NCBI GenBank assembly: GCA_035696585.1
Contig: DASRQP010000313.1
Span: 1 to 38,072 of the forward strand
Direction of reading: 5' to 3'
Source of the DNA: Candidatus Acidiferrales bacterium
Lineage (GTDB): Bacteria > Acidobacteriota > Terriglobia > Acidiferrales > UBA7541
Length of the DNA: 38,072 bases
The position numbers and the translations under genes are program-made. Below are positions 2,146 to 35,212 of the stretch, piece by piece (positions within the stretch are counted from its first letter, which is position 1; every line of letters begins with the position of its first letter). The notes below the pieces were generated by a model. That model had not been told where the DNA came from, did no database searches, and was given only the letters and a program-made list of their open reading frames with translations.

Positions 2146-2799
2146 ATGACATCGAACGAAACGATACTACCTAAACGAATCGCTTGTTCAGCAGCGGTGA
2201 TTTTTTGCCTTGGATACGCGTGCTTTGGGGCAGCACTCGCCGCGCCACATCCGGATCGCGCTGCGCGACAGCCTGCACAGAAAGCAAGACCCTCGACATC
2301 GAAGACTGGGGCGGCAAACGCCGCTTCAAAGCAAAATGGCGAGCTTCCGCTGATCGACTTGGCGGGCTATCAGAAACTGGTGGCGAAATATAAAGGCAAG
2401 CCCCTGGTGGTGAATTTCTGGGCGACGTGGTGCGAGCCCTGTAGAGCGGAATATCCGATGCTGGTGGGGCTGGCGAAGAAATATGAGCCACAGGGAGTGG
2501 TTTTTCTTGGCGTGAGTTACGACGCGGACGCGGATTTGAACGTCGTGGGCCACTTTCTAGCGATGTACCGGCCCGATTTTCCCAATTACCGGCAGAAACC
2601 GGGAATTGACGTTGACGCATTCAATCACGGGGTTGACCCGGCGTGGGACGGCGCGATTCCTTCGACAATTTTCTACAAGCCGAACGGAGAATTTGACGCG
2701 CAATTTTTTGGGACGAGGCCGCGCGCGGAGTTCGAAAAGGAGATTCAAAGTTTGACCGCAAATCCGTTCGCGCCGAAATCTGCAACGCCTGGCAAGTAA
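2146..2799 (+). CDS. TlpA/ResA-like periplasmic thiol:disulfide oxidoreductase (thioredoxin fold)
   Basis: 217 aa with an N-terminal hydrophobic anchor (IACSAAVIFCLGYACFGAALA). Contains the redoxin core KGKPLVVNFWATWCEPCRAEYP with a CxxC motif. Confidence 0.8.
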   Translation: MTSNETILPKRIACSAAVIFCLGYACFGAALAAPHPDRAARQPAQKARPSTSKTGAANAASKQNGELPLIDLAGYQKLVAKYKGKPLVVNFWATWCEPCRAEYPMLVGLAKKYEPQGVVFLGVSYDADADLNVVGHFLAMYRPDFPNYRQKPGIDVDAFNHGVDPAWDGAIPSTIFYKPNGEFDAQFFGTRPRAEFEKEIQSLTANPFAPKSATPGK

Positions 2800-6354: not shown

Positions 6355-8622
6355 CTAAGTCGCAGCGGAACGACGGTCTTTGATTTCTTGCAAGTGCTGG
6401 CGAAGGCGGGCGAGAACTGCTTCACCCTGGCCCTCCGCGATTTCGCGTTCGAGTTCCGTCAATGCGAAATGAATGATGTCGTGATGGTGGATTTCCTCAC
6501 CCTTTAATTCATCGCTCAATCGAAGCCAAATATCGTGCAGCAAGTCGATTTCCTTTGGCGTCAGGTGCGGCGAGTGCGGGCCGAGGTAGAAAACCCGTTG
6601 CTGCCCGCCGGCGGTCACGATTTCGAGGGCCACGCGAGGACGCGGTTCGGGCATACGCTCCCAGGCGAGACCGACCTCGCGTGCCTGCTCGGTCAGCGGC
6701 ATCTTCGACGATCCCCCGACGACGATGGATGCCGACTGCAGATTCGCAGCGGAACGCAAAATGCCATCCCACAAGTCATTCGCGGCAGCCACGGCGAGGC
6801 GGACGGGTTTCCCTTCCTTCTCGGCAATGGCTAAGACTTTGGTGAAGAGGAGTTGCTCGATGGTACTGAAAAGCTGTTCGGGGTTCAGATCATATTCGCC
6901 AGATGCAGCGCGACGCAACAAGCGGATGTGGAGAACAACGATATCCTGCTCGTTCGTTCTCAATCGCTCGAGAACAGAATGCAGATGATAGAGCGCATAG
7001 TAGTTGCTGACGGGAACGAGAATGTTTCCCGGGCGAACGCCAACGCTCGCGGGAGTGATATCCGCCTCCTCTGACAGATTGAATTGATCGAGTTCCGTGG
7101 AGCGTGTCATGCCATGCTGTTTTAAAACTCTTCTCTCCGAGAGGGTAAATGCCACAAACAACAATGCGGAAAAGACCACGCCGGCAATTGTGGCATCGGG
7201 CTTGGTGAACAGATTTACGAGGGCAATGAGCAGCAGAACCAGGGTGATGAGGCCAAGGCCCACAGGAATTTCCGTGCCCGCGATTGTGAAGTTAAGTGGA
7301 ACGCGATATTCGCGGTCCTGGGGATGCGTATAGCGAAGGACGAGAACCCCGAAGCCCTTCATCGCGAAACTCCAAATGACGCCAAAGGCGTAAAGGTTGC
7401 CGAGAAAATTCACATCGCCGCGGCTGACCAGAATTGTAACGATCTGGAGCACCGCCACACTGGTAATGATTCGGTGTGTGGTCCCGTATCGGCGGTGAGG
7501 ATGGCGAAACCAGTCGGTTAATACACCGTCCTCCGAAATCCGGCTCAACACGCCGTTGGAGCCGACGATAGCGGTATTCACCGCGCCGGAAAGAATGAGC
7601 ATGCCGACGACAACCACAAAGACGTGAAAGGCGATGCGCAGGGCGAAGGGACCCTGCAGATGCATCGACAGGCCGCCGATGAGGTTTTCGAAGAACTGCG
7701 GCCGGATGCGGTCAGGGATAATCATGACGGCAAAAATGGAAACGAATGCCGTGAAGGCCAGGCTGTACGCCACGACGATAAGGGCGGTCTTCTTGAGGTT
7801 TGCGAGCTTGGGATGTTCGATTTCGCGATAGACCTGGGCGAGAGTCTCTTCGCCGCTCATGGCCAAGACAGAATGGCCAAGACCAACAAAGATCACGACG
7901 AGTGTGAGCGTGTGCGCCCAATGGAATTTGTTCAGCCATCCGAGCGAATGCTGGTCGAGAAGCATGTTCTGCGGCAACGGCGCGGGCGGCCAATGAGCGC
8001 CGCGAACGACAACGGTATAAATGCACCAGGCAATCAGAATGACCACCATCACGGTGGTCACTTGCATGATGCGCAGCGCCTTCTCGCTCGACTCGGGAAT
8101 GCCCTTGATGTTCTGCCACCAGAAATAAACGGTCACAAGAATGGCGATGGTTGCCGCCGTGGCGTTTACAGAAAGCGACACATGGAAGTGGCCGTAGCGT
8201 AGAAGCTCGTTAACCAAACCCGCGACGTATTGCCCTGCCGCGACGCCGCTGATTGGGCCGGTGAGAACGTAGTCGAACATCAACGCAGAGACGGAAAGTT
8301 TCGCAAGCCCTCCGCCCATCGCCTCTTTGACCACGCGATAAACGCCGCCCCGAACGAACATGCTGCAACTCTCGACGTAAATCAGGGAAACGGCGTAGGC
8401 CAGCAGCATTACACCCAGGATGAACCACGGCGCAGATTTGCCGATGAACAGTTCCGCTTCACCGCCCGCGTAATAAGCCGAGGAAGCTAAATCATTGAGA
8501 ACGATCGCGCCGGCGCGCCAGAAGGAAATGAAGCTGAGCATCGCCGTGGTGGCTACGAGGACGTTGACTGCGGGGCGCGCAGAACTCTTGAGTTGACCGG
8601 GCGGTGTGGGCTTGGATGCCAT
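6355..8622 (-). CDS. APC-superfamily amino acid/polyamine permease fused to a cytoplasmic USP-like C-terminal domain
   Basis: 755 aa. About 500 aa form a multi-TM permease (many long hydrophobic segments). These are followed by ~250 soluble aa starting NILVPVSNYYALYHLHSVL...VVLHI...IVVGGS, a universal-stress-protein-like pattern. Confidence 0.7.
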   Translation of the reverse strand: MASKPTPPGQLKSSARPAVNVLVATTAMLSFISFWRAGAIVLNDLASSAYYAGGEAELFIGKSAPWFILGVMLLAYAVSLIYVESCSMFVRGGVYRVVKEAMGGGLAKLSVSALMFDYVLTGPISGVAAGQYVAGLVNELLRYGHFHVSLSVNATAATIAILVTVYFWWQNIKGIPESSEKALRIMQVTTVMVVILIAWCIYTVVVRGAHWPPAPLPQNMLLDQHSLGWLNKFHWAHTLTLVVIFVGLGHSVLAMSGEETLAQVYREIEHPKLANLKKTALIVVAYSLAFTAFVSIFAVMIIPDRIRPQFFENLIGGLSMHLQGPFALRIAFHVFVVVVGMLILSGAVNTAIVGSNGVLSRISEDGVLTDWFRHPHRRYGTTHRIITSVAVLQIVTILVSRGDVNFLGNLYAFGVIWSFAMKGFGVLVLRYTHPQDREYRVPLNFTIAGTEIPVGLGLITLVLLLIALVNLFTKPDATIAGVVFSALLFVAFTLSERRVLKQHGMTRSTELDQFNLSEEADITPASVGVRPGNILVPVSNYYALYHLHSVLERLRTNEQDIVVLHIRLLRRAASGEYDLNPEQLFSTIEQLLFTKVLAIAEKEGKPVRLAVAAANDLWDGILRSAANLQSASIVVGGSSKMPLTEQAREVGLAWERMPEPRPRVALEIVTAGGQQRVFYLGPHSPHLTPKEIDLLHDIWLRLSDELKGEEIHHHDIIHFALTELEREIAEGQGEAVLARLRQHLQEIKDRRSAAT

Positions 8623-8737: not shown

Positions 8738-9124
8738 TTAGTCAGATTTTTCGCCGGAAAATTCGCGGACGCAAGACTCGCAGGGACAGATCTCGCGGAA
8801 ATGGCTGAAGCTGTAAATCCCCGTGGCGTGACCGTCGGTAAACTCAATTTGAATTGCGTAATTCCCCACCGCTGCCGCAGCGCGCGCGGTGACCTTAGGC
8901 TTGAATAGCGGCAGCGCGGCTGAACCACCGGAGATCTTTTCGGTGAGGCCGGCCTTCTTGTCGTCTGCTTCTCTGCAAGTGGCACAGGGGCAATGCTCGC
9001 GAAGGTAAGCAAAGTCATAATGGCTGGTATGCGCGTCGGACCAAGTGATATCTATGCCGGCTCCGGTGGAGACGTGAACCTTTACGTTGATGGGTTTCTT
9101 GCGAATGTCGAGTGGGATGGGCAT
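8738..9124 (-). CDS. DUF971-domain protein (gamma-butyrobetaine hydroxylase-like N-terminal fold)
   Basis: 128 aa with ITWSDAHTSHYDFAYLREHCPCATC and IEFTDGHATGIYSFSHFREICPCESC. This is the internally duplicated DUF971 pattern with two CPCxxC motifs. Confidence 0.75.
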   Translation of the reverse strand: MPIPLDIRKKPINVKVHVSTGAGIDITWSDAHTSHYDFAYLREHCPCATCREADDKKAGLTEKISGGSAALPLFKPKVTARAAAAVGNYAIQIEFTDGHATGIYSFSHFREICPCESCVREFSGEKSD

Positions 9125-9196: not shown

Positions 9197-10276
9197 TCAT
9201 TTGCCTTGTTCCTTTGCCGGGCAGCAAGGTCCTGGAGGAATGGGGTTGCCATGTGGGCATGTGACAGGATGGCCGAGGAAGCTGCAAATGCGCTCGTCGA
9301 GCTCCGGGCTGATGATGTGCTCGAATTTGCAGGCTTGCGAATCGGCCTCGGCATTGGCAATAGCAAACGTGTCTGTGAAGAGGCGCTCAGCGAGGCGGCG
9401 ACGGCGAACAACATCACGAGCGCGACGCTGGCCGCGGTCAGTCAGTTCAATTTCGGAATCGTGCATGGCGACCAAACCCACGACCGATAGGCGTTGCAGG
9501 GTACGTTCGGGATCGGCATCGAGGGAATGAAAACGCGCAAGTTTGGCGCGCTTGCCAATTTCGGCGCAGAGCCACAATTCTTCAAGCACGTGATCGATGC
9601 GCGCTTCGTCTTCGGAGGAGTAGACGGTGATTTGCGCGAGGCGGCCGTGCGCGAGCTCGATACGGCGATCCGCGAGACTGCCAATGGAGGGATCGTGCGT
9701 GACCATCAAGATTGTATGGCCCTCGTTGTGGAGATCGCGCAGAAGGCGAATCACGGTTTCTTCGTTGGCTTCGTCGAGATTTCCCGTTGGTTCGTCGGCA
9801 AGAATAAGCTTGGGATGATTGATGAGCGCGCGGGCGACGGCGACGCGCTGCTGTTCGCCGCCGGAAAGTTGCGAAGGAAGATGCAGGAGGCGTTCGCCCA
9901 AGCCGACGCGTCGAAGGGCTTCGGCGGCCTCATGTTCATCCGTGGTGCTGTGAAAATATTGCGCGAGCATGACGTTTTCAACCGCGGTGAGATACGGGAC
10001 GAGGTGAAACTGCTGAAAGACAAAACCGATTTTCTCGGCGCGAAAACGCGTGAGGCCCGTTTCGTCGAGACGGCCCACGTCAACGCCGTCGACGATGGCG
10101 CGGCCGTCCGTGGGCGTGTCGAGTCCGCCGAGAATATTGATGAGCGTAGTCTTACCGGAACCGGAAGGACCCATGATGGCGATCCATTCGCCAGATTCGA
10201 TGCTGAAGGAGACGCCATTCAGCGCGCAGACATCGCCGAAAGCTTTTCTTAGTTCCGTAACTTCGACGAGCGCCAC
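9197..10276 (-). CDS. MacB/LolD-type ABC transporter ATPase fused to a complete DtxR-family metal-dependent regulator module
   Basis: aa 1-215 carry Walker A GPSGSGKT, Q-loop, signature LSGGEQQR, Walker B LILADEPT and H-loop VTHD. aa ~222-348 carry LEELWLCAEIG...LQRLSVVGLVAMHDSEIELTDRGQRRARDVVRRRRLAERLFTD...ACKFEHIISPELDERICSFLGHPVTCPHGNPIP. This is colinear with DtxR winged-HTH plus dimerisation/metal domain (..HRLAERLLTD..ACRWEHVMS..CPFGNPIP). GTG start lies 3 nt after the upstream permease stop. Confidence 0.8.
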   Translation of the reverse strand: MALVEVTELRKAFGDVCALNGVSFSIESGEWIAIMGPSGSGKTTLINILGGLDTPTDGRAIVDGVDVGRLDETGLTRFRAEKIGFVFQQFHLVPYLTAVENVMLAQYFHSTTDEHEAAEALRRVGLGERLLHLPSQLSGGEQQRVAVARALINHPKLILADEPTGNLDEANEETVIRLLRDLHNEGHTILMVTHDPSIGSLADRRIELAHGRLAQITVYSSEDEARIDHVLEELWLCAEIGKRAKLARFHSLDADPERTLQRLSVVGLVAMHDSEIELTDRGQRRARDVVRRRRLAERLFTDTFAIANAEADSQACKFEHIISPELDERICSFLGHPVTCPHGNPIPPGPCCPAKEQGK

Positions 10277-10279
10277 TGA

Positions 10280-11431
10280 TTATTCTCCTCTTAAGATTAC
10301 GGCTGGACGAACATTGCCGAGCAAGCGCAAAGGCAAAGCTCCCGCGAGCGCGACGCAAAGCATTAAGATCACTGTGGCAGGCAGCACTTCCCATCGCGGA
10401 GAAATGCTCGCGCCGAAAACGCGATGGCCCATCCAAACAGAGAGAACCATGCCGAGCGCGTATCCGAGAATTCCGCCCAGGGTTCCGAGGACGCCGACCT
10501 CAGCAAGAAAAAGCCGCACCACTTTTTGAATCGAGCCGCCGAGGGCTTTCATCAGGCCGACGTCCTGGCGGCGCTCCATCGCGAGCGCAGCCATTGTTGC
10601 GAGCACGCACAACGCGGTGAGGACAAGAATCAGCAAACCCATAGAAAGAATCAAAAAGCGTATTCGCTGGAGAAGCTTCCCTTCCGCTTCCGTGATTTGC
10701 GGAATCGGTTTCACTTCAAGAGCCGGAAAGGCGGTCTGGAGCGTGTCCGCAACGGTGCGGATTTGCGCCGCTGAGCCGGGAACGCTCAATTGGATCAGCT
10801 CAATCTTGCCGTCGAGGCCGGCAAGTTTTTGCGCGACGGGCAAGTTGACGAAAATCTGATTGTCTTCCGAGCCGCCCGCATCCGTGACCCCCGCAACCGC
10901 GAGAGTTACGCTGCGGCCTTGATACGACAAGGCGATATTGCCGCCCGCCGAAAGGCCCAGACTGTTGCTCACATTGCGGCCGATGAGACATCGAGAAAGA
11001 TCCGTTCGCGAAACACTTCCGGTTCCGGCAATTTTCCACCATGGTTCCATTTGCGAGACGCGGTCGAGCCAAGTTCCCGTGACGACGACATCCTGTCCAT
11101 TCTTGGAGCCAGTGCGCGCGACGAGATACAAATCCGGAGACGCAACCGCGCCTGAAACCTGGGATTGACGGTCAATGCTTTGCTCAACATCCTGCATGAC
11201 CGATTCATCCATAAGCGGCGGTACGCCGGGTGCTGCGGATGAGGTCTGCGGCGCGGAGATGACAACATTCGCGCCGAGGGAGCGAAATTCCTGCGTGAGC
11301 TTGTGGTTGATATCCAAATCGAGATTCAACAGTGCCGACACAACTGCGCCACCGCTGATGAGCGCGAGCAGTGCCACAACGAGCCGCACGCGGTTTCCAC
11401 GAAGCAAATGGAAGAGCAGGCGCTTGAACAC
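10280..11431 (-). CDS. ABC transporter permease, FtsX/MacB-like
   Basis: 383 aa with an N-terminal TM, a ~230-aa extracytoplasmic domain, then a C-terminal FtsX-type TM bundle (MERRQDVGLMKALGGS motif). Its GTG start overlaps the preceding TAG by 1 nt (TAGTG). Confidence 0.85.
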   Translation of the reverse strand: MFKRLLFHLLRGNRVRLVVALLALISGGAVVSALLNLDLDINHKLTQEFRSLGANVVISAPQTSSAAPGVPPLMDESVMQDVEQSIDRQSQVSGAVASPDLYLVARTGSKNGQDVVVTGTWLDRVSQMEPWWKIAGTGSVSRTDLSRCLIGRNVSNSLGLSAGGNIALSYQGRSVTLAVAGVTDAGGSEDNQIFVNLPVAQKLAGLDGKIELIQLSVPGSAAQIRTVADTLQTAFPALEVKPIPQITEAEGKLLQRIRFLILSMGLLILVLTALCVLATMAALAMERRQDVGLMKALGGSIQKVVRLFLAEVGVLGTLGGILGYALGMVLSVWMGHRVFGASISPRWEVLPATVILMLCVALAGALPLRLLGNVRPAVILRGE

Positions 11432-12723
11432 TACTGCCCCCTCAGAATGGGCGCGGGCGGGACATGGGCGGCGCGATAAAGCGGAATCCAGCTTCCAAGC
11501 AACGCGACGGCAGCAGCCGCCGCGAGAATTATCGGCAGGACGATCAGGCGCGGTAAAGTCGCGATACCAAAGACTGTTTCACCCAACTCGCGCGCGAGGC
11601 CCGCGCCGAGCAGAAAACCCAAGCAGCCTCCGGCGATGGCCAAGAGCAATTGCTCGCAGAGAAACAAACCACCGACCAGAAAATTGGTTGCGCCCAGGGC
11701 TTTCATCAGGCCGACCTCGACGCGACGCTCCATGGCCGTAGTGGCCGAAGTGGCGCCGACAGCAAGAGCGGCGGCAATGAGCGCGGCGATGGTGACAATC
11801 CAGAGAAGAAGACTGACGCGCGAGAGTACGCGGCCTTCGGTCTCTGCAACGCGGCGGATGGCTTCAACGTGAGTGCCGGGGAGAACTTCCTGAATCTGGC
11901 GGCCGATCGAAGTGATGTACGGCGAACAATACCAGCGGTCGAATTCGGTGGACGTCATCTTGTTGGGATCTTGTTGCGAGAAGGCATCGGCCGGCTTGGT
12001 GAGAGCGCTGACAAAGAGCTGGCGAAATTCGCCGGGCTTGCCGCCGAGATCCTGGGCCAAGGAAAGCGGGCAGAGCACGGCGTCGTCCTGCGAATCGCCG
12101 GTTGTGACGATGCCAGTCACGGTCGCGAGAGATTCGCGGGAATCCACGCTGAGATTTAAGTCGTCACCGATGGCGATTCCATATTTTTGTGCTACGGACG
12201 CGCCGGCCACGCAATCCTTCGAATCGTCGGCGAACCATTGGCCGCGAATCTTCCACCATGGATGAGTGAAACTGGCGCCGGTCGCAAAAGTGGTGCCGTC
12301 TTCAATCGGCACGGAGTGCCTGTACCAAGTGCCGATGAGTGTAGTCTGGAATTGGGTGGTGTTGGCACCAGCCCGTTCGATGCCGGCCCGGACGGGAATA
12401 TCGAGAAAGGGAGTAAAGCCGAGAATATTGTGGCGCCAGAAAATGGTCTTGAGCTTGGGCAGAGCCGAAGTGGAAAGATAGGCGCCCTGATCGACTGGAC
12501 GGTAGTCAACGCCGCCAATCTCGACGGGCAGAGTGTCCGCTTGCGGCGTGACCAGCAAGTTTGCGCCGAGGCTGCGGAACTCGCGCGCGAGTTGATCTCC
12601 AACATCGACTGCGACGGTGAATGTGGCCGTGGCAACGGCCATGCCGAGAACCAACGCAATTCCGGTGAGCACTTTCCGGCGCGGGTTGCGTGTGAACGAT
12701 TCTCTTAGGAGGCGGATGAACAT
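11431..12723 (-). CDS. ABC transporter permease, FtsX/MacB-like
   Basis: 430 aa with the same architecture (MERRVEVGLMKALGATN motif). It starts 15 nt downstream of the FTR1-DUF2318 gene. Confidence 0.85.
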   Translation of the reverse strand: MFIRLLRESFTRNPRRKVLTGIALVLGMAVATATFTVAVDVGDQLAREFRSLGANLLVTPQADTLPVEIGGVDYRPVDQGAYLSTSALPKLKTIFWRHNILGFTPFLDIPVRAGIERAGANTTQFQTTLIGTWYRHSVPIEDGTTFATGASFTHPWWKIRGQWFADDSKDCVAGASVAQKYGIAIGDDLNLSVDSRESLATVTGIVTTGDSQDDAVLCPLSLAQDLGGKPGEFRQLFVSALTKPADAFSQQDPNKMTSTEFDRWYCSPYITSIGRQIQEVLPGTHVEAIRRVAETEGRVLSRVSLLLWIVTIAALIAAALAVGATSATTAMERRVEVGLMKALGATNFLVGGLFLCEQLLLAIAGGCLGFLLGAGLARELGETVFGIATLPRLIVLPIILAAAAAVALLGSWIPLYRAAHVPPAPILRGQ

Positions 12724-12738
12724 GTGCGTTTGATGCGT

Positions 12739-14037
12739 CTATTTCTGAATCCGCGAGGCCGCGTCGACGATGGCCGAAAGATCGAGGACTATATTCGTTC
12801 CTTCGACACGCGACTTGAAGGCAATGGGATTGCAGCCTCCGGGCATGCCAATTTCGGCGGCGTTCACGGGGGCGCCACAGTTGCGGCAAATCAAGACCGA
12901 ACCTTCCTGGCGATAACCTATCAGACCGCAGATTTCGCAGGCATCAAGCGCGCTGACGAAGTCGCCATTGGGCTTGCGCATCACAAAAAAGCGAAATGCG
13001 GTCCCCTGCACGTCCACCGTGTAGAAATGGACGGAGACTCCGCTCATTTCCGCCAGCGGGAGCCGAACAAGGTTTCCAACTGCTGCGACATGCTCTGCTT
13101 CAGGAGGAGCAGCGGACGCGCGTGTATAAACAAACTCAGCCGTGAGGGAGAGTATGACCGCAAGGCACAGAAAGGCCGCCGCGAAACTCCATCCCCGACG
13201 ACGGCGATACTCGTGCTCTCGGAGGCGCTTTTCAGCGGGATTCGCGGGCGCATCAAGCGCGGCGCCGCCAGTGCCGCCACTTTTTCCGCCAGCCTCACCT
13301 CCGTGGAGCGCGAACCATTCGCGCAATACCACAATTGCAGCGACGCCGAGAATAACAACGAAGAAGAAGTATTCGTTGCGGACGATGGGACCGATCGTCG
13401 CCATTTCCTGCTTGCTCGATGGAAGCCATGTGGCCTCGCTCAATTCATGCAAGCCTGTCAGGGCAAGTTGAAATGCGACGACCATCAAGATCGTGCTGGT
13501 GGCGGCGAAAAAGCGGCCAAGAGGAATCTTAAGCGTCCCTTGGAAGAAAAACAGGCCCACGGCGACGGCCATGGCGATTCCGATTCCAGTGCCAATCCAC
13601 ACTTGAAGGCCTGCAATGGAGAGCTCCACGGCGCGAAGAATCAGGATCAGTTCGGCGCCCTCGCGCAAAACCATCAGGAAAACAAAAAAACCGATTCCCC
13701 ACCCCGCTGCACGCTCGCTCTTCTGTGCGTAGGTCTCGACGCGCTGTTCGATTTCTTTGCGCAGGCGACGCGCGACGCGGTTCATCCAAATAATCATGGA
13801 GACAACGAGAGCGGCAGCGGCCAGCATAAGCACGCCCTCGAATCCGTCTTCGCTGACCTGCCAGCGCTGCAGCAGAACAGCGGCCGCGAAACTGCACGCG
13901 ATAGCAACTGCAACGCCAGCCCACACGTAACGCGCCAATTGGCGGCGGCCCGTGCGATTGAGATAGACTAAGACAATGCCGACCACAAGGGCGGCTTCAA
14001 CGCCTTCGCGGAGAGCGAGTAGGAGTGCGGAAAGCAT
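12739..14037 (-). CDS. FTR1-family high-affinity iron permease fused to a C-terminal DUF2318 Cys-rich domain
   Basis: 432 aa. Two REGxE motifs sit in TM segments (REGVE aa 10-14, REGAE aa 125-129), diagnostic of FTR1/EfeU. After a Gly-rich linker and an extra TM comes FYTVDVQGTAFRFFVMRKPNGDFVSALDACEICGLIGYRQEGSVLICRNCGAPV...IGMPGGCNPIAF, the DUF2318 signature (DACxxCG..GY...CxNCG...GGCNP). Confidence 0.85.
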   Translation of the reverse strand: MLSALLLALREGVEAALVVGIVLVYLNRTGRRQLARYVWAGVAVAIACSFAAAVLLQRWQVSEDGFEGVLMLAAAALVVSMIIWMNRVARRLRKEIEQRVETYAQKSERAAGWGIGFFVFLMVLREGAELILILRAVELSIAGLQVWIGTGIGIAMAVAVGLFFFQGTLKIPLGRFFAATSTILMVVAFQLALTGLHELSEATWLPSSKQEMATIGPIVRNEYFFFVVILGVAAIVVLREWFALHGGEAGGKSGGTGGAALDAPANPAEKRLREHEYRRRRGWSFAAAFLCLAVILSLTAEFVYTRASAAPPEAEHVAAVGNLVRLPLAEMSGVSVHFYTVDVQGTAFRFFVMRKPNGDFVSALDACEICGLIGYRQEGSVLICRNCGAPVNAAEIGMPGGCNPIAFKSRVEGTNIVLDLSAIVDAASRIQK

Positions 14038-14069
14038 TTAGGAGTCGAGCCCAGTTGTAACTCAGTATC

Positions 14070-14085
14070 AACTAGGAATTCCGAG
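14070..14085. promoter_or_regulatory. imperfect 16-bp palindrome in the divergent FTR1/secretin control region (candidate operator)
   Basis: ACTAGGAATTCCGAGT has 12 of 16 positions symmetric around GGAATTCC. It lies 33-48 nt upstream of the FTR1 ATG and overlaps the spacer of a weak GATACT -10 candidate on the minus strand. Confidence 0.2.
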
Positions 14086-14198
14086 TGTATCGCTCTGTGA
14101 AAATATCGTCAAGGGAAATACCCTACATTCGATAGACTTTCCTAAGTGCACAAACGAGGCGTGTTCGACAGTCAAATACGCCATCACGTCGCAAGGAC

Positions 14199-17100
14199 TT
14201 GGAGGCACGCCTTGGCTTTCGCGGCACAGACGCGGGCAACTGCACGAGCTTCAAGCCAATCTCTGTAAGAATAGCGAACAGGTATATTCATTTGCGTCTA
14301 CTTCTAACGATCGCGTTTGGTCTGTGCGCCGCGCTTGGCACATTCGGCGGACAGGTGCAGACGCCAGCCAAGTCTCCCTCTGGGGCCGTTCAAAAAAGAA
14401 ACTACGATTCCAAGCGCTCGAAAGAGGCGTACGAGCGCGGGATGAAAGCGGAGAAGCAGAAGAATTGGCCGATGGCATTTGCCGCCTACACGGAAGCCGC
14501 GCAACAAGATGCAACAAAGCCGGAATATTTATTGCGTAGAGAGTTCGCCCGAAGCGAGTTGGTGAGCGCATCCGTGGACCGCGCGGAGCGGGACGCGTTG
14601 ACAGGCCACCTGGCCGAGGCACGCGAGGAATTGGACGCAGCGCTGGTGCTTGACCCGAGCGATGAGATGGTGCGCGAGAGGCTGGCGCAACTGGCGCCGT
14701 CCTCTGCCGCCGCTCTGCGGCAACTGATGACCAAGCCCGCAGGCGTGGTGCGACTGGAGCCGCTGACGGCTACGCACAGCTTCGATTATCGGGGCGATAC
14801 GATAAGCGCATACGAAGCAGTGGCGCGCGACTTTGGCGTGGACGCCTCGTTTGATGTAGAGCTGCAATCGAAGCCCGTTCACTTGCAAGTCACTAATGTT
14901 GATTTTACAACCGCCATGCGCGTGCTCGGCGATATGACCGGAACGTTCTGGCGGCCACTGACGGGCAGGCTTTTCTTTGTAGCCGCCGACACGCCAGAAA
15001 AACGCCGCGCGTACGATCTGTCGGTGGTAAGCACCGTGGAACTGCCTGCCTCCGAAACGCCAAACGACATGACCGAGGTGCTGCGCATCGTCCGCGATAT
15101 CGCAGGAATCACGCGTGCGCAACTGAATTCATCGGCGCGAACCATTACGATGCGGGCATCGCCGCAGGCAATTTCGGTGGCGACGAAATTGCTCGCCCAA
15201 CTTGAGGAGCCGCGCGGAGAAATGGTGTTGGAAGTGGAAATTCTCGAAGTGGACCGCAACGCCGCCAGCCAAATCGGAATTACGCCGCCTACATCGGTGT
15301 CAGCGTTCTCTCTGACGCCGCAACAGATTCAAACTGCACAATCCGGCATAGCGGGACTCATAGGAGTGATTGAACAACTTTTCGGACCGACAAGCGCACT
15401 GTCGGGATTGGGCGCGAACCAAATTGCCTCGTTGGTGGGATCAGGGCAAGTGGGCGTAGGCTCGCTGATTCCGCCGCTGATTGCGTTTGGTGGGGGAAAG
15501 ACGACATTTCTGTCGACCCTGCCCGGAGCGGCAGCGGCGTTCTCAGATACGCTGAATGTCGTAAAAAGCGGCAAGCGCGTCCTGCTGAGAGCGGAGGACG
15601 ACAAGCCCGTTACGTTCTTCGTCGGGGACCGCGTGCCGATTGCGCTGGCGCAATTCTCTTCGGGCCTGACGTCGTCGAGTTTCATCCCCAATGTGTCGTC
15701 CAGCCTCTTTCCGCGAACGGATTTTGCCACAGGGAAGAATCCCGTTGCGATTGTCGCGGCGGACTTCAATGCTGATGGCAACGTGGACCTGGCAAACGCC
15801 AATCACGATGACAACACCGTGTCCATTTTCCTTGGAAACGGCGATGGAACATTCACGAGTAAAGGAACCCTGGCGACCGGGCTGGGCCCTGTTGCGCTGG
15901 TTACCGCGGACTTTAATAACGACAGCGTTCCCGACCTGGCTGTGGTGAACCAGACAGACGATACGGTTTCTATTTTCCTCGGCAACGGCGACGGCACATT
16001 TACGCTCAAGGGGACTTTCGCTACAGGAAAGAATCCGGTCGCGGCCGTGACGGCGGATTTCAATGGAGACGGCCATACGGATCTCGCGGTAGTCAATCAA
16101 AGCGATAACACCGTCTCAGTCCTGCTCGGGAATGGCGATGGAACGTTTCAACCGCAAACTGTGATCTCAACAGGGCAAGGTCCATCAGCAATCGCCACCG
16201 CGGACTTCAATAACGATGGCAAGGCAGATCTCGCGATTACAAACCAGTCGGCGAATACCGTCTCGATTTTTCTGGGGAACGGAGACGGAACTTTTGCCGG
16301 CAGTGGAACGCTTCCTACAGGGACTTTGCCGGTCGCGATTGCCGCGGGACAGTTCAACGTCAACACCAGCACGAATGTTGGATTAGTCGTTGTCAATCAG
16401 ACGGATAACACCATCTCGAATTTCCTGGGCAATGGCGACGGAACGTTCACGTCGAATGGCACTTCGGCGTTAAGCGTCAGCGCGACTACCGGTAATAAGC
16501 CAGTGGCGATTGCTGCCGGGGATTTCAACGTAGACGGGCGAACAGATTTGGCGATATCAGATGAGAACGCAGACCTGGTAGACATCTTGATCGGCAATGG
16601 CGACGGCACGTTTGCTTCGCTGCTACAGCTTCCGACCGGAACGGGGCCCATCGGCCTGGTCACTGGAGAGTTTCTGGGCGCGGCCCATCCACCGGATCTG
16701 GCCGTGACGGATTCGACGGCCAACACGATTTCCGTGATATTGGACAACGCCACTTTTAGTTCGACGAATAGTGCTGCAGCGCCGATTCCGTTCCCCAGTT
16801 CCCAGTATGAGGACATCGGGCTAAAGATGAAGGCAACTCCTCACATGCACGCGGACGGTGACGTAACGCTCGAGTTGCACTTCGAACTGCGCAGTCTGAC
16901 GGGAGATTCCGTAAACAGCATACCCGTGATCAGCAATCAGACAATCGATCAGACGGTCCGCGTGAAGGATGAGGAAACAACTGCGCTGGCAGGGATCATC
17001 GAATCACAAGAAATGCGTGCTATCAATGGCACTCCTGGAGTGGCGGATCTGGGGCCGTTTGGGTTGCTGGGAAGCAAACGCAGCACACAAAATGACAAAA

Positions 17101-17231
17101 CGGAATTGTTGGTACTGGTAACTCCGAGAGTGGTGAGTTGGAACCCTAAGACCGCTAAACCAATCTACGCAGGACGCGCGCCGGTCGACGTCGGTGGATT
17201 TGTTTCTTTGCCAGGTCGACCGGTGCCGTAG
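14199..17231 (+). CDS. secretin-family outer-membrane protein with a seven-blade FG-GAP beta-propeller inserted in the secretin domain
   Basis: 1010-aa ORF. The likely true start is TTG 14292 (MRLLLTIAFGLCAALGTFGGQ signal peptide). The N-terminal ~100 aa are helical and TPR-like. Secretin N-domains follow (VHLQVTNVDFTTAMRVLGDMTG...; ITMRASPQAISVATKLLAQLEEP). The secretin core starts at VLEVEILEVD...FFVGDRVPIA, then 7 FG-GAP repeats, and resumes at YEDIGLKMKATPHMHADGDVTLELHFELRSL...IPVISNQTIDQTVRVKDEETTALAGII...GTPGVADLGPFGLLG...ELLVLVTPRVV. Confidence 0.8.
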   Translation: MEARLGFRGTDAGNCTSFKPISVRIANRYIHLRLLLTIAFGLCAALGTFGGQVQTPAKSPSGAVQKRNYDSKRSKEAYERGMKAEKQKNWPMAFAAYTEAAQQDATKPEYLLRREFARSELVSASVDRAERDALTGHLAEAREELDAALVLDPSDEMVRERLAQLAPSSAAALRQLMTKPAGVVRLEPLTATHSFDYRGDTISAYEAVARDFGVDASFDVELQSKPVHLQVTNVDFTTAMRVLGDMTGTFWRPLTGRLFFVAADTPEKRRAYDLSVVSTVELPASETPNDMTEVLRIVRDIAGITRAQLNSSARTITMRASPQAISVATKLLAQLEEPRGEMVLEVEILEVDRNAASQIGITPPTSVSAFSLTPQQIQTAQSGIAGLIGVIEQLFGPTSALSGLGANQIASLVGSGQVGVGSLIPPLIAFGGGKTTFLSTLPGAAAAFSDTLNVVKSGKRVLLRAEDDKPVTFFVGDRVPIALAQFSSGLTSSSFIPNVSSSLFPRTDFATGKNPVAIVAADFNADGNVDLANANHDDNTVSIFLGNGDGTFTSKGTLATGLGPVALVTADFNNDSVPDLAVVNQTDDTVSIFLGNGDGTFTLKGTFATGKNPVAAVTADFNGDGHTDLAVVNQSDNTVSVLLGNGDGTFQPQTVISTGQGPSAIATADFNNDGKADLAITNQSANTVSIFLGNGDGTFAGSGTLPTGTLPVAIAAGQFNVNTSTNVGLVVVNQTDNTISNFLGNGDGTFTSNGTSALSVSATTGNKPVAIAAGDFNVDGRTDLAISDENADLVDILIGNGDGTFASLLQLPTGTGPIGLVTGEFLGAAHPPDLAVTDSTANTISVILDNATFSSTNSAAAPIPFPSSQYEDIGLKMKATPHMHADGDVTLELHFELRSLTGDSVNSIPVISNQTIDQTVRVKDEETTALAGIIESQEMRAINGTPGVADLGPFGLLGSKRSTQNDKTELLVLVTPRVVSWNPKTAKPIYAGRAPVDVGGFVSLPGRPVP
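15708..16748 (+). repeat. seven tandem coding FG-GAP/VCBS-like repeats (~50 aa each)
   Basis: Repeat consensus P-V-A-x-x-x-ADFNxDGxxDLAVxNxxxNTVSIFLGNGDGTF. The Ca-binding-like DxNxDGxxD is intact in blades 1-4 and 6 and degenerate in blades 5 (GQFNVNTSTNVGL) and 7 (GEFLGAAHPPDL). Confidence 0.85.
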
Positions 17232-24978: not shown

Positions 24979-27900
24979 TCAGCGAGGCAACGGAACCAGC
25001 AACAATCGGCCATTCGCCTGGTCGACGACTGCGGCAACATTCGTCAAAGGGTCGATGGCGACGGAAAACTCAGCCGAGCCGCCCATGGGCAGCACGAACT
25101 CGACCTTACCAGCTTGGATCGACAACACCGAATTGGGGTTCGTGGCCAGAAAATTGAAGACCGACAGGGTGTTGGTGGCGTTATTTACGGTCACGCCGGT
25201 GCCGCTCTGGAAATTGTAGGCGATCGCGGTTGGATTGATACCCATGCGGATGGGCGTAGCCGTAAATGCTTTCGGATCGACCACCCCCAAATCGTTTTGA
25301 AGACTGTTGGCAACCAGGAACGTATCCGTTATGGGGTCAAACGCCGCGTCAGTCGGCACTTCAAAATTATTGAGGCGGCCCACGATGAAATGGCTTCCGA
25401 GATCCACGATATCAACCGTGTTCTGCGTGGTGGCGGTGACTGCCAAGAGATTATCGATGGGGTCGATGCTCACGCCGAATGGGCGCTGATCCACCGGAAT
25501 GCTAGCAGGCGCTGAGGAAATAGCACCGCTGCCGATCGTAAACTCCGAAACCGTATTCGAGTCACTGTTGGCCACAGCAACCGTGCCGGTGTCAGGCTGG
25601 ATAGCCACGCCCGCTGGAGATGTGCCGACTGTTACGGTTGCGGTCACGGCGTTGTTGACATAGTCAACGACCGTGGCGTCGCCACTGCCATTGTTTGCCA
25701 CCACGCCGAGGCCTAGTCGCGGAAGCACGGCGACGCCTTCCGGGCATGTACCCACCGAAAACGTGTTCGTCACAGATATCGAAGAAAGATTCACAACCGA
25801 AACAGTTCCAGTTCCCGTACAGGTTCCGGCCGAATTGAGCGCGCCCTGGCTGGTGACAAGCGCCTCGCCAAGATCGGGGTCGATCGCCACAGCAATTGGA
25901 TTCAGTCCAATCGGAATGGCGCCGATTACTGCGAAACTCTTCTCGTTCGAGGCCGAACCGCCGGGAGTCATTACATCCAAGGAAAAACGCCGCGGCGCCG
26001 CCAGCAGGTTTCCGGGAATTGTGGCCGTAGCTTGCCGGCCATTCGAACTGACCACTGTGGGGACGATTGTCCCATCCAGCCGCAGCTGCGAACCGGACAC
26101 AAATCCAAATCCGTTCACGGTGACGGCGAGCGAACCCGAACCTGGCGCCGTAAACGTGGTTCCCGGGCTGAGTTCCGTAATTTGCGGCGAGCGAATTGGG
26201 CCAAGAGGCAGAATGGAGATGTTGTTGCTACCAGAGTTCGCAATCACCGCAACGTTTTTCCCTGCGTCAATTGCCACCGCCTGGGGCAGCGTGCCAACAG
26301 CGATACTATTTCCAATCGGCTTCAGAGTTCGCAAATCGAGTACGGTGGCCGTTCCACCTATGCTGTTCAATACAACGCCAACGTCAGTGAGGGGATTAAC
26401 GGCGTCAGCGACTTCTCCTTGGGTCAATGAAACCGTATTTACGGTTTGATCGAGCACACTGAATAGAGTCAAGGTTGTTTGATTCGGATCGGTGAGGAGA
26501 GCCTCTTCGGTCTCCGTGTTGATCGCGACACCCTGAACGCTGGTTGACAATGTGGCGGAAGCGATCACGTTGGGTACACGCGCGACTTGGGTCGCCGTCG
26601 CCGCACTTCCCAGGTCCACAATGGTGACCGAACCAGAACCGCCGGGAGTCACGACAGCCCAGTTCAATTGCGGCTCGACGGCAATCGTGGGAGTGGGGCC
26701 AGTGCTGACGGGGCGCGTGTTGGTGTTCGGCGTAGTGGCACAATTATTGGCCATGCTCGCGTCGGAGCCGCCGAGCACGCACACCAGATTCGGGGGATTC
26801 GTTGACAGATCGACTACGGCAGCGACGTTCGTATTTGAGTATGCAACCAGCGCGCGGTGCGTCAGTGGATTTACCCCTACGGAATAAGGCGAAGGTGCCG
26901 GCGTGGTACCGGTAGGATTACTCGGGAGAGAAAACGCCGTCACGGCTTGGGTCTGAAGGTTCACGATGGAGAGCGTGTTGTCCGAGCTATTGACGACCGC
27001 AGCCAGATGCAAGATGTCGTCCACGCCAACGCCCGTGGGCGCATTTCCCACCGTGAGCGTGGCGCCCGCGGAGTTAGTGTCGAGATTTATGAGAGTTACG
27101 GCACCCGCGCTTCCGCTGGCTCCATGATCCACAACCACCGCAGTACCGAGCGCCGAATCGATCGCGACGGCGGTTGGCTGGGTGCCGACCGCGATAGGCG
27201 CAAGCGGCGCGGGAGGAATGTCCGTCGCCGACGGAGAGACGGCAACATTAACCGAAGCAACAGCCGGCAGCCCGCTTGGCACGTCGCTATTTTGCACAAG
27301 TATGGGAAACAACCCCGGCGTGGAAAAAGAAAAACCAGGCGCCGACAGCGTGGCTTGCAATTGGCGGCTGTTCACCAGAGTGGCGGGAAGAGTTTGATTC
27401 CCGGATGTGACTCGCGTTGACGATGAGAAATATCCGCCGTTCAAACTGAGAGTACCCGAAATTGTCGACGGGGGAAAACTGTCCGGGGTGGAAGCGACAA
27501 CCGCCGGCCGCGTGGGCTGTACAGTCAAAGGGGCTGGCTGGCTGGTGTCGCCATTTTGGCGCTCGACTGTGATCGCCAACGAACTGGGGGCCGGGCCAGC
27601 AAAGAAAGTAGAAGGGATGGTCGCACGGAGAGTATTTGCGCCGAGGAATGTGGTCGCCACAGGCGCGCCATTGACCAGAATCTGGCTGGTGGAAAAGAAA
27701 TTGCTGCCGAACAAATAGACGTCCTGTTGGAACAACCCTTCAACAGCGCTGCTCGGCTCCAACGGAATCGCGCTGAAGCTGGGATCAGAGCCGGCAATAG
27801 CGCTGACTGAGGCGGAAGCGGACTGCCGGGAATCCGCAGCGGAAGTAGCGGTAATGGTGACGCTGGCTTGCGCCGCTGGGGGAGCGGTGTAGCAAGCAAC

Positions 27901-28533
27901 GCTCATGCCTGGCGTGGCGGGGTTCGGCGGAATAGGAGTGATGGGCATGCTCACGCTGCAAGCGGTAGGAACAATGGTGCCCACAGTTGAATTTCCGTTC
28001 GCAATTTGATTTACGGACCAATTGACGGCCGTATTCGAATTTCCGGACACGGTTGCGGTAAATTGGAACTGCTCCGTGGTGCCGATCGCGGCGCTTGAAG
28101 GAGTAACCGAAACGCGTATGCCGGTGTCGAGGCTGACATTGGTGATGGCAAAGACCGCCGTATCCGCTTGGCTGATCGCAACGATGCTAACCACCGGAGG
28201 GCTCGGCAGATTTGCGGGAGCGGTATAAAGACCGGTAGTGCTTATGGTTCCAAGGGTGGCGTTTCCGCCTGTAACGCAGCCGGTCGGCATGGTGATGTTG
28301 GTTACTGTAGAACTACCCGTGGCATTGCTTGCAGGCGCTTGATTGCAGACGTCCCAGGTAACCGTGGTGTTCGCTTCGCCGACTACAGAGGCACCATACT
28401 GCTGCGTGCCCGCGAGGACCACCGTCTGATTGACCGGCGACACCGTGACGGTCACAGGCGTGGAAGCGCCTCCGCCACAGCCTGCTATGAGTGCAGCCAA
28501 AGCTACAGTGATTCCCCACTTACCCGATCTCAT
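24979..28533 (-). CDS. 1184-aa surface/periplasmic lipoprotein: 2 Big_2-like Ig domains, 3 IPT/TIG-like domains and two seven-blade YVTN beta-propellers
   Basis: Lipobox LIAG-C19, with GGAGGA SD. Ig-like domains: VTVSPVNQTVVLAGTQQYGASV...VTWDV and VSVTPSSAAIGTTEQFQFTATV...VNWSV. IPT-like domains: LFGSNF...ILVNGAPV...LRATIP; LSLNGGYF...LQATLS; VTVNGFGF...LRLDGTIV...ATATIP. There are 7 + 7 repeats of the VGxxPxGVAIDxxxxxAxVANxxxNTVSVIDL type (aa ~445-778 and ~870-1184). Confidence 0.8.
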   Translation of the reverse strand: MRSGKWGITVALAALIAGCGGGASTPVTVTVSPVNQTVVLAGTQQYGASVVGEANTTVTWDVCNQAPASNATGSSTVTNITMPTGCVTGGNATLGTISTTGLYTAPANLPSPPVVSIVAISQADTAVFAITNVSLDTGIRVSVTPSSAAIGTTEQFQFTATVSGNSNTAVNWSVNQIANGNSTVGTIVPTACSVSMPITPIPPNPATPGMSVACYTAPPAAQASVTITATSAADSRQSASASVSAIAGSDPSFSAIPLEPSSAVEGLFQQDVYLFGSNFFSTSQILVNGAPVATTFLGANTLRATIPSTFFAGPAPSSLAITVERQNGDTSQPAPLTVQPTRPAVVASTPDSFPPSTISGTLSLNGGYFSSSTRVTSGNQTLPATLVNSRQLQATLSAPGFSFSTPGLFPILVQNSDVPSGLPAVASVNVAVSPSATDIPPAPLAPIAVGTQPTAVAIDSALGTAVVVDHGASGSAGAVTLINLDTNSAGATLTVGNAPTGVGVDDILHLAAVVNSSDNTLSIVNLQTQAVTAFSLPSNPTGTTPAPSPYSVGVNPLTHRALVAYSNTNVAAVVDLSTNPPNLVCVLGGSDASMANNCATTPNTNTRPVSTGPTPTIAVEPQLNWAVVTPGGSGSVTIVDLGSAATATQVARVPNVIASATLSTSVQGVAINTETEEALLTDPNQTTLTLFSVLDQTVNTVSLTQGEVADAVNPLTDVGVVLNSIGGTATVLDLRTLKPIGNSIAVGTLPQAVAIDAGKNVAVIANSGSNNISILPLGPIRSPQITELSPGTTFTAPGSGSLAVTVNGFGFVSGSQLRLDGTIVPTVVSSNGRQATATIPGNLLAAPRRFSLDVMTPGGSASNEKSFAVIGAIPIGLNPIAVAIDPDLGEALVTSQGALNSAGTCTGTGTVSVVNLSSISVTNTFSVGTCPEGVAVLPRLGLGVVANNGSGDATVVDYVNNAVTATVTVGTSPAGVAIQPDTGTVAVANSDSNTVSEFTIGSGAISSAPASIPVDQRPFGVSIDPIDNLLAVTATTQNTVDIVDLGSHFIVGRLNNFEVPTDAAFDPITDTFLVANSLQNDLGVVDPKAFTATPIRMGINPTAIAYNFQSGTGVTVNNATNTLSVFNFLATNPNSVLSIQAGKVEFVLPMGGSAEFSVAIDPLTNVAAVVDQANGRLLLVPLPR

Positions 28534-34037: not shown

Positions 34038-34883
34038 TCACCCGAGCCCTTCCAGGCTAGAAGAATTTCCCGACACGCCACGCCCGTCGGCACGAGGCGC
34101 AACAGCTTCGTCATCCGACACCAACAAACCGTGCTCCAAACGCATCACGCGGTCCGCGCGCCGCGCCAGGGAAAGATTATGGGTTGCAAGAATCGAAGTC
34201 AGATGATGGGACCGGTGTAAGCGCTGCATGAGTTCGAAGATCGACTCCGTAGTTTCCTCGTCCAAATCGCCCGTAGGTTCATCGGCCAGCAACAACTTTG
34301 GCCGGGTTATCAGGGCCCGAGCAATTGCAACCCGTTGCTGTTCCCCGCCCGAGAGTTCGCCCGCACGATGCTGCGTGCGGTCCGAGAGGCCAACTTCATT
34401 CAGCCATTCGCGCGCCACATTGAGCGCTGCGCTCGCTGCGTTCCCCCGAATCAACAGCGGCATCGCCACGTTTTCCAGGGCAGTGAAGTCAGCCAGCAAC
34501 TGATGTCTCTGCCAGATAAAACCCACGGCGCGGCTGCGGAAGTCTACCAAGTCGCATTCCGCAAACCCTGCCAGCGAATTTCCGCCGAAGTATACTGTAC
34601 CGCTTGTTGGCATGTCCAGCGCGGCCAGGAGATGCAGTAAAGTGCTCTTGCCCGAGCCCGAAGGGCCAACGAGAGCCACCATCTCGCCAGACGCAACCGC
34701 GAAGCTCACGCCTGAAAGAGCGATAATCTCAGCAGCACCGGAGTGAAACAGTTTCCGCAAGCCATCTATGCGCAGGAGTTCCGTGGGTCCGTTCTGCACA
34801 GATGTGGACGCTCGCTGGCTCGGTGCCATCGCTGATCCAGTCGATGTCAGGGTCGATGCCGGGCTTGGGCTCGTCATTGTCAT
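34038..34883 (-). CDS. lolD: lipoprotein-releasing system ATP-binding protein LolD
   Basis: 281 aa with Walker [10 protein letters not shown], signature [15 protein letters not shown] and Walker [13 protein letters not shown]. It has an S/T-rich N-terminal extension and pairs with the upstream LolC/E-type permease. Confidence 0.8.
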
Positions 34884-34918
34884 CGATTTCGCCGTGGACT
34901 CGTCGTGAGCTTGCTCAT
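34880..34918 (-). CDS. candidate 12-codon upstream ORF translationally coupled to lolD
   Basis: ATG 34918 encodes [16 protein letters not shown] lies 3 nt upstream. Its TGA overlaps the lolD ATG (ATGA), and lolD itself has no recognisable SD. Confidence 0.2.
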   Translation of the reverse strand: MSKLTTSPRRNR

Positions 34919-35032
34919 AAACTCCACTAATCCCTTGTCACTTCCCGTGCCGAACCTCCCAGTCACTTATCTCTTTGGATTCTGCGGCTTATCAAAAGGT
35001 CGCTTCCTGCTCCTCTTCGCAACTCCAAGTTC

Positions 35033-35051
35033 TTGCACATTATGAGTGCAA
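35033..35051. promoter_or_regulatory. perfect inverted repeat TTGCAC-N7-GTGCAA in the lolE/lolD-clpC gap
   Basis: The 6-bp arms are separated by ATTATGA. It lies 150-168 nt upstream of the lolD ATG. Confidence 0.3.
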
Positions 35052-35212
35052 AAGTTCCTATCCGTCGAAAAGATCCCGGCGAAATCGACTGATCCACAAC
35101 TCCATTGTAGCACGTTGTCTTTCGGTGCCCGTGTTTACACACGCATGCATTGCGTGGGCATAAACCGTGCCGAGTCATGGGACTTCAGTTCTGGGAAAGC
35201 GCCCCTCGCAAT

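Follow-up and report, generated by a model that had tools for sequence, protein, structure and literature searches.

The stretch of DNA analysed here, referred to below as the window, comprises positions 1 to 38,072 (38,072 nucleotides) of contig DASRQP010000313.1 (assembly GCA_035696585.1) of a 'Candidatus Acidiferrales' bacterium and has a G+C content of 57%. It contains a cluster of iron transport genes that represents a genuine and strongly conserved variant, apparently not described before, of the FetMP-FetABCDEF system, for which a hypothetical mechanism is proposed. Judging from sequence, the cluster rather probably encodes a compact FTR1-based iron importer of the Fet family, organized as a five-gene operon of 'Ca. 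Acidiferrales' and working by the mechanism proposed below. The following genes and parts of genes were annotated (aa, amino acids; ABC, ATP-binding cassette; AF2, AlphaFold2).

12739-14037, minus strand: FTR1::DUF2318 protein, 432 aa, with seven FTR1 helices, two RExxE motifs, a basic cytoplasmic linker, helix 8 and a Cys-rich DUF2318 domain predicted to be periplasmic (Pfam).
12742-13188, minus strand: eighth transmembrane helix and DUF2318 (residues 284-432) with CEIC-x13-CRNC-x14-C (invariant cysteines, AF2 model).
11431-12723, minus strand: FetB orthologue, 430 aa, a MacB-type FtsX permease with a periplasmic domain of ~260 aa (Pfam, phmmer).
10280-11431, minus strand: FetC orthologue, 383 aa, the second MacB-type FtsX permease (Pfam, phmmer).
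9623-10276, minus strand: FetD-type ABC nucleotide-binding domain, residues 1-218 (ABC_tran, phmmer, Foldseek).
9200-9619, minus strand: DtxR/IdeR-like two-domain module at the C-terminus of the ATPase (Fe_dep_repr_C, IdeR/DtxR alignment, AF2 model).
8738-9124, minus strand: DUF971 (GBBH-like_N) protein, 128 aa, with two CPCxxC motifs (Pfam, E 7e-25).

A preliminary description of this DNA had reported four tightly coupled genes with gaps of 15, -1 and 3 nt, encoding FTR1-DUF2318, two MacB-like FtsX permeases and an ATPase. The coordinates of the open reading frames (ORFs), with the ATPase gene at 9197-10276, match these gaps exactly, and Pfam domains were confirmed for all four genes. Both fusions of the locus, described there as fusion-rich, namely FTR1::DUF2318 and ATPase::DtxR, are real and conserved. 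The four genes are thus present as described, but the unit most likely consists of five, including the DUF971 gene, and is accompanied by a conserved operator. The term 'minimal version' has to be abandoned: the ATPase-DtxR fusion occurs in only about half of the relatives, and therefore the window holds the fullest version.

The relatives are represented by 80 species-level loci, returned by a scan for FTR1::DUF2318 across the species representatives of GTDB, with 57-96% identity to the query. Nearly all are labelled as lineages of Acidobacteriota, and one contig as Verrucomicrobiia. Together with the window these loci comprise 1.48 Mb and 16,668 ORFs of at least 50 aa. The gene order is fixed across the 80 loci: truB, a divergent gene of a secretin with an FG-GAP propeller, FTR1::DUF2318, FetB, FetC, FetD, DUF971 and an amino-acid permease. 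Every related locus holding the whole gene has the FTR1::DUF2318 architecture. In all 69 of 69 loci the ATPase gene is followed by the DUF971 gene, probably the fifth of the operon. The median distance between the two is 75 nt, in four loci they overlap by 1 nt, and the DUF971 protein contains two CxCxxC motifs in 66 of the 69.

The characterized Fet cluster, fetMP-fetABCDEF, includes genes of the FTR1 permease FetM, the P19 protein FetP, FtsX permeases FetB and FetC, the ATPase FetD and thioredoxins FetE and FetF, together with FetA, a membrane protein that has eight helices and carries both a DUF2318 and a YHS domain (PMC6083913, PMC10783030). In the 33 species analysed by Liu et al., the first six genes are separate and have the same order, with P19 adjacent to FTR1 (PMC6083913). 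In Campylobacter jejuni, fetA, fetB, fetC and fetD are each required for growth at low iron (PMC10783030), and the role of FetBCD is stated as unclear (PMC6083913, PMC10783030). The component set of the C. jejuni locus cj1658-cj1665, given in the preliminary description, and the unexplained role of its MacB-like module agree with these two papers.

Gene 1 encodes an FTR1 domain (PF03239, residues 1-204, E 4e-38) and an FtrD-like/DUF2318 domain (PF10080, residues 335-426, E 3e-25). The RExxE motifs REGVE (residues 10-14) and REGAE (125-129), as well as the cysteines C367, C370, C384, C387 and C402 of DUF2318, are invariant among 50 homologues. Residues 1-201 align with the core of E. coli FetM (FetM residues 362-569) at 27% identity, including both RExxE motifs, while residues 204-425 align with residues 179-395 of FetA, i.e., with its last two helices and DUF2318 (hhalign, E 2e-24). 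In phmmer searches of gene 1 with E. coli probes, E values of 1e-14 for FetA and 1e-10 for FetM were obtained. The best NCBIfam match of the protein is EfeU (NF041756, E 4e-47), with 161 bits, which is below the cut-off of 255 bits.

The AF2 model of the gene 1 product (predicted local distance difference test score, pLDDT, 69) shows eight long helices, followed by a C-terminal domain that is rich in beta structure and has pLDDT of 80-89. Loop charges are compatible with the FTR1 topology, with the N-terminus outside and seven helices, and place a strongly basic linker (EKRLREHEYRRRRGW) inside, between the FTR1 helices and helix 8. Helix 8 would accordingly put DUF2318 in the periplasm, above the entry formed by the RExxE motifs. 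DUF2318 is physically tied to the channel, and therefore both may be expected to act together at the periplasmic face.

FetA and FTR1::DUF2318 both have eight helices, and gene 1 was considered as a full-length FetA orthologue, the N-terminal helices of which would represent a degenerate FTR1. This origin was checked by BLASTP and by hhalign with a single FetA and with a profile of 24 enterobacterial FetA sequences. It is unsupported at the sequence level: the alignment is confined to residues ~204-425 of gene 1 and ~179-395 of FetA, and no FTR1 signal was found in the 24 FetA sequences, even at E<=5.

Genes 2 and 3 each encode the domains FtsX (PF02687) and MacB_PCD (PF12704). Using proteins of the cluster of E. 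coli plasmid pCE10A (L081), from which the Fet probes were taken, phmmer identified the first FtsX protein as FetB (E 7e-83), the second as FetC (E 1e-53) and the ATPase as FetD (E 3e-85). The preference is reciprocal, FetB scoring best on the first FtsX protein and FetC on the second. The product of gene 4 contains ABC_tran (E 3e-35) and Fe_dep_repr_C (PF02742, residues 279-347, E 1.6e-25), and the best Foldseek matches of its nucleotide-binding domain are MacB, LolD, YbbA and FtsE (E ~1e-18). The scores of FetB, FetC and FetD far exceed those of another FtsX/ABC pair encoded in the window. That pair, an FtsX/MacB_PCD permease and an ABC ATPase at 34038-36439 of the minus strand, adjoins lysS and clpB and scores 22 bits against FetB; it is only distantly related to FetBCD and probably of the Lol type.

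The two permeases differ in their conservation: 124 positions of FetB are near-invariant across the relatives, many of them common to E. coli FetB, versus 47 positions of FetC. Since FetB is far more constrained than FetC, its periplasmic domain is suggested as the working end. Among the conserved features of FetB are a periplasmic block P.D.LP.EIGGVDYR and several Trp residues common to E. coli FetB.

P19 is absent from the locus, both in the window and within 10 kb in the 80 species-level relatives. In the window, no long ORF matched PF10634 (P19), cupredoxin (Cupredoxin_1), EfeO (Peptidase_M75) or EfeB (Dyp_perox) in Pfam scans. A phmmer search with E. coli FetP gave no match at E<=10 in the window or the 80 loci (ORFs of at least 50 aa within +/-10 kb), and the intergenic gaps of the window leave no room for another gene. 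The absence of a P19/Tp34-like, cupredoxin or EfeO/EfeB partner from the window, noted in the preliminary description, was confirmed by the Pfam scans of long ORFs and the FetP search. No thioredoxin or FMN (flavin mononucleotide)-binding protein of the FetE/FetF type is encoded at the end of the operon, where the ATPase gene is followed by the DUF971 gene; the sole TlpA-like ORF of the window (2146-2799, plus strand) is located ~6 kb past the operon end on the opposite strand and gives a weak match (E 5e-7).

A co-regulated gene of P19, EfeO/EfeB or a cupredoxin could be located elsewhere in the genome, so that the operon would encode the membrane half of a conventional Fet/Efe system; this is compatible with the other points. 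Such a partner is suggested by the FTR1 permeases studied, which are paired with a periplasmic iron-binding or iron-oxidising protein, such as Fet3p, EfeO/B, P19 or FtrB (established knowledge, PMC11966278). However, P19 is adjacent to FTR1 in fixed order in all 33 species of Liu et al. (PMC6083913), whereas the 80 relatives keep the operon without P19 or any FetP match in its surroundings, and the permease is devoid of the part of ~360 aa that precedes the FTR1 core in E. coli FetM. An unlinked partner is therefore considered possible and rather unlikely.

Compared to the FetMP-FetABCDEF systems of C. jejuni (cj1658-cj1665, CJJ81176_1649-1656), E. coli (F11, pCE10A) and Salmonella (FetMP-Fls of pUO-StVR2), the operon of the window shares the FTR1 permease with RExxE motifs, DUF2318 with the pattern CxxC-x13-CxxC-x14/15-C, and FetB, FetC and FetD in the same order (E 1e-53 to 3e-85). 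In contrast to them, it encodes neither P19/FetP nor FetE/F, and P19/FetP is also absent from the surrounding 10 kb. Besides the N-terminal part of FetM, the six N-terminal helices and YHS domain of FetA are missing, and the remaining last helices and DUF2318 are located on the permease polypeptide. FetD carries the DtxR-like module, and the DUF971 gene is added. The Fet operon of C. jejuni has a Fur box, while a different operator was found here.

With EfeUOB of E. coli and Bacillus and FtrABCD of Bordetella, Brucella and Burkholderia the system shares a short FTR1 core of EfeU size and, in concept, the coupling of the channel to a periplasmic partner that binds iron or acts in redox chemistry. 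EfeO, EfeB, FtrA (P19) and FtrB (cupredoxin) are absent from the window, while the ABC module, present here, is absent from those systems. Similar to the type VII MacB-like ABC systems (MacAB-TolC, LolCDE, FtsEX, YbbAP and BceAB), FetB and FetC have the four-helix FtsX fold with MacB_PCD between helices 1 and 2, and the nucleotide-binding domain is nearest to those of the MacB, LolD and YbbA ATPases. By analogy, mechanotransmission is the likely way of working of FetBCD. Unlike these systems, the operon encodes two different permeases, forming a heterodimer, is linked to an importer, has a metal-sensor module on the ATPase and contains no gene of an adaptor or an outer-membrane factor.

The last ~140 residues of the ATPase align with residues ~29-135 of IdeR/DtxR (E 1e-17), and residues 7-140 of the module align with standalone proteins of the DtxR family at 40-47% identity, covering the full winged-helix and dimerisation core. 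The AF2 model of the module has the canonical order a1-a2-a3-wing-a4-a5-a6 (pLDDT 74-90). In 47 fused ATPases, residues E297, C316, E319 and H320, corresponding to the primary-site ligands E83, C102, E105 and H106 of DtxR, are invariant, as is the helix-1 cluster D228, H229 and E232. According to Guedon and Helmann (2003), Cys at the position of DtxR residue 102 is reportedly a residue of the Fe type and not of the Mn type. The ancillary-site residues His79 and His98 of DtxR are replaced by Arg and Asp, and no SH3 domain was found in the module. Six extra residues of the tail, C331, H336, C340, H342, C351 and C352, are also invariant in the fused ATPases and are not present in IdeR/DtxR. The tail itself (window positions 9200-9300, residues ~325-359) has the motif IC.FLGHP.TCPHG.PIP.G.CC.

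The module thus shares the fold and the primary metal site with DtxR, IdeR and MntR, while it is fused to an ABC ATPase instead of being a free transcription factor, and the contacts with DNA are not conserved. The recognition-helix region (residues ~240-278) is its least conserved part. Most of the DNA-contact positions of DtxR are replaced (S37L, P39A, T40D, S42E, Q43R, R50V and R60S), differing between clades, although R262 (R47 of DtxR) is nearly invariant. The module is located at the C-terminus of the ATPase, like the trans-inhibition domains of MetN (C2), ModC and MalK. The regulatory C-terminal domains of these ATPases, belonging to MetNI, ModBC and MalFGK2, mediate trans-inhibition by the transported substrate.

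The ATPase was matched in 72 loci, in about half of which it has the fused form (355-409 aa), while the other half contain a plain FetD (222-231 aa). In the tree of FetB and FetD, the fused state is deepest and paraphyletic, and at least four changes are required, which are most simply read as four losses of the module. Unusual lengths of the ATPase were observed in deep-branching relatives: 269 aa in L069 (13849-14658), 394 aa in L072 (13844-15028) and 409 aa in L076 (14109-15338). The ATPase of L069 may retain a remnant of the DtxR module. In the ATPase of L076, extra residues follow the nucleotide-binding domain, and the winged-helix region of the module contains an insert of 23 residues, located before the last strand.

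Searching a 50%-identity library with the module revealed 3,677 DtxR-like proteins. Among the best 150, ten longer matches outside the N-terminus were scanned, and six of the ten contain a fusion with an ABC domain; the single named source is 'Ca. Polarisedimenticolia' (Acidobacteriota). In the literature, no DtxR-type domain acting as a regulatory domain of an ABC protein and no such fusion were found, nor was anything specific found on the acidobacterial system.

Upstream of the FTR1::DUF2318 gene, two putative regulatory sites were annotated.

14053-14073, strand not assigned: putative 21-bp palindromic operator AGTTGTAACTCAGTATCAACT, pattern AGTTG-N11-CAACT, preceded by the -10-like hexamer and followed by the FTR1 start codon.
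14084-14112, minus strand: promoter-like site TTGACG-17-TACACT (consensus scan; the -10-like TAnACT is conserved in the upstream alignment).

Alignment of 200 nt upstream of the permease gene gave the operator family consensus CcAGTTGaaActgatTT.CAACTgG, with ten invariant positions. The palindrome is located ~15-20 nt ahead of the start codon, just downstream of the -10-like TAnACT hexamer, and all 78 of the 78 related loci with upstream DNA have one copy in this position. In the window it is matched once, with 0.06 matches expected by chance. No other AGTTG-N11-CAACT was detected in the window and the 80 loci, except an overlapping second match in L077, and therefore no regulon was drawn. The position of the palindrome fits a site of a repressor. 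In some lineages the operator core has the form TTGCAAAT-N-ATTTGCAA, which we take, as a lead only, to recall the 7-1-7 boxes of proteins of the Fur family. Compared with the known consensus sequences, the operator appears unlike the boxes of IdeR/DtxR or MntR.

Alternatively, the module could be a membrane-tethered transcription factor, which in the Fe2+-bound form would bind the operator of the operon or other DNA and couple transport to expression. The entire winged-helix and dimerisation core, the identity to standalone regulators, the a1-a3 and wing fold kept in the AF2 model and the nearly invariant R262 are consistent with it. On the other hand, the operator is invariant in lineages devoid of the module, most DNA-contact positions are replaced and vary between clades, the winged-helix region of L076 carries an insertion, and the operator differs from the boxes of the DtxR and MntR type. 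A tethered regulator is thus improbable.

The module as the repressor of the operon in particular was rejected as the main reading, since the operator persists in ~35 module-less loci and the recognition helix varies. The unchanged operator in these lineages argues that the module is not the protein that binds it, and that it is dispensable for the core function. Most likely, judging from sequence conservation and from the analogy with MetN, ModC and MalK, the module senses iron in the cytoplasm and throttles the ATPase: its metal ligands are kept, its recognition helix is variable, and four or more apparent losses of the module left the operator in place.

From the parts of the operon, the following mechanism is proposed for a Fet-family importer. 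The cysteine site of the tethered DUF2318 would take up periplasmic iron and pass it to the entry of the RExxE channel, probably in a redox-coupled way, and so do the job that is divided between P19 and FetA in the classical system. FetBCD would move no substrate; ATP would drive motions of the periplasmic domain of FetB that load or release the DUF2318 site. Rising cytoplasmic Fe2+ would bind to the His/Glu-Cys-Glu-His site of the dimeric DtxR module, which would then lock both nucleotide-binding domains in an inactive state, as the domains of MetN, ModC and MalK do, and uptake would halt within seconds. Slower, transcriptional control would be provided by a separate repressor, possibly of the Fur family, acting at the operator. 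As an acceptor of the iron on the cytoplasmic side, DUF971 is a candidate. That FetD bears a putative sensor at all argues for the turnover of ATP by FetBCD as the step gating the entry of iron, which bears on the unexplained ABC module of Fet systems in general.

A function other than import may also be considered, namely a metal-activated exporter or a periplasmic machine handling thiols or metals, in which high cytoplasmic metal would switch on the MacB-type pump via the DtxR module, and FTR1::DUF2318 would have another role. Characterized ABC systems of the MacB type do export or perform mechanical work in the periplasm (established knowledge). However, both RExxE motifs are invariant here, the FTR1 proteins characterized so far import, and the homologues in C. 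jejuni are required specifically at low iron (PMC10783030), which makes a non-importer very unlikely.

Several points weigh against the proposed importer and its mechanism. The topology of FTR1::DUF2318 is a prediction, based on the AF2 model with pLDDT 69 and on positive-inside reasoning. In a Foldseek comparison of DUF2318 with PDB, ring-hydroxylating oxygenases were matched consistently but weakly, in their Rieske [2Fe-2S] domains (E 0.04-0.3); these matches are not significant and serve only as a hint. A periplasmic Fe-S cluster would be unusual in a domain that, like DUF2318, is not exported by Tat. Uptake of a preformed Fe-S cluster would be difficult for a domain threaded across the membrane behind a helix, and for this reason a mononuclear metal site or a thiol/disulfide site is speculatively favoured for DUF2318. 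The Cys and His residues of the module tail (C331 to C352) may form a different second site, binding Zn or an Fe-S cluster. The DtxR module is dispensable, being absent from half of the relatives, and metal binding could activate the ATPase instead of inhibiting it. RNA evidence is thin: in soil metatranscriptome contigs just short fragments with 95-99% identity were found on FetB and FTR1, along with a generic ABC motif, weakly hinting that close relatives transcribe the FetB and FTR1 genes.

A broader reading is put forward tentatively, as somewhat doubtful: the operon of Acidiferrales may represent a core that is sufficient by itself and common to all Fet systems. In this core, FTR1 would be fed by DUF2318, worked mechanically by FetBCD; P19, the thioredoxins and the extra parts of FetM and FetA would be later additions. 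The DtxR module would in this case be the first trans-inhibition domain of an ABC ATPase with the fold of a metalloregulator.

The Fet system is relevant to iron acquisition in Campylobacter, uropathogenic E. coli, Yersinia and other bacteria, and the function of FetA and FetBCD is still unexplained after two dedicated studies (PMC6083913, PMC10783030). The variant suggests that P19 and the thioredoxins lie outside the indispensable core. The ATPase is tied to the fold of a cytoplasmic iron sensor, and therefore ATP hydrolysis by FetBCD would be the step to control when iron is sufficient. If true, trans-inhibition of the DtxR type gives the importer a direct post-translational feedback from iron. 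The operon is widespread in an abundant, uncultured soil lineage and is therefore probably a main route of iron uptake there. As a unit of five genes it is small enough for expression in laboratory E. coli, where the role of the ABC module is directly testable.

Among other genes of the window, an ORF of 1184 aa without Pfam matches at E<=0.001 (24979-28533, minus strand) is located between the genes of BamA (Omp85/POTRA) and Skp/OmpH. Downstream of the DUF971 gene, in the window and in most related loci, an amino-acid permease is encoded; in the window it consists of 755 aa (6355-8622, minus strand), with AA_permease_2 at residues 32-480 and a C-terminal extension of ~270 aa without a Pfam match. 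Divergently from the iron operon, a secretin of 1010 aa with FG-GAP propeller repeats is encoded at 14199-17231 of the plus strand, and this pairing is retained in the related loci with upstream DNA, at 35-93% identity.

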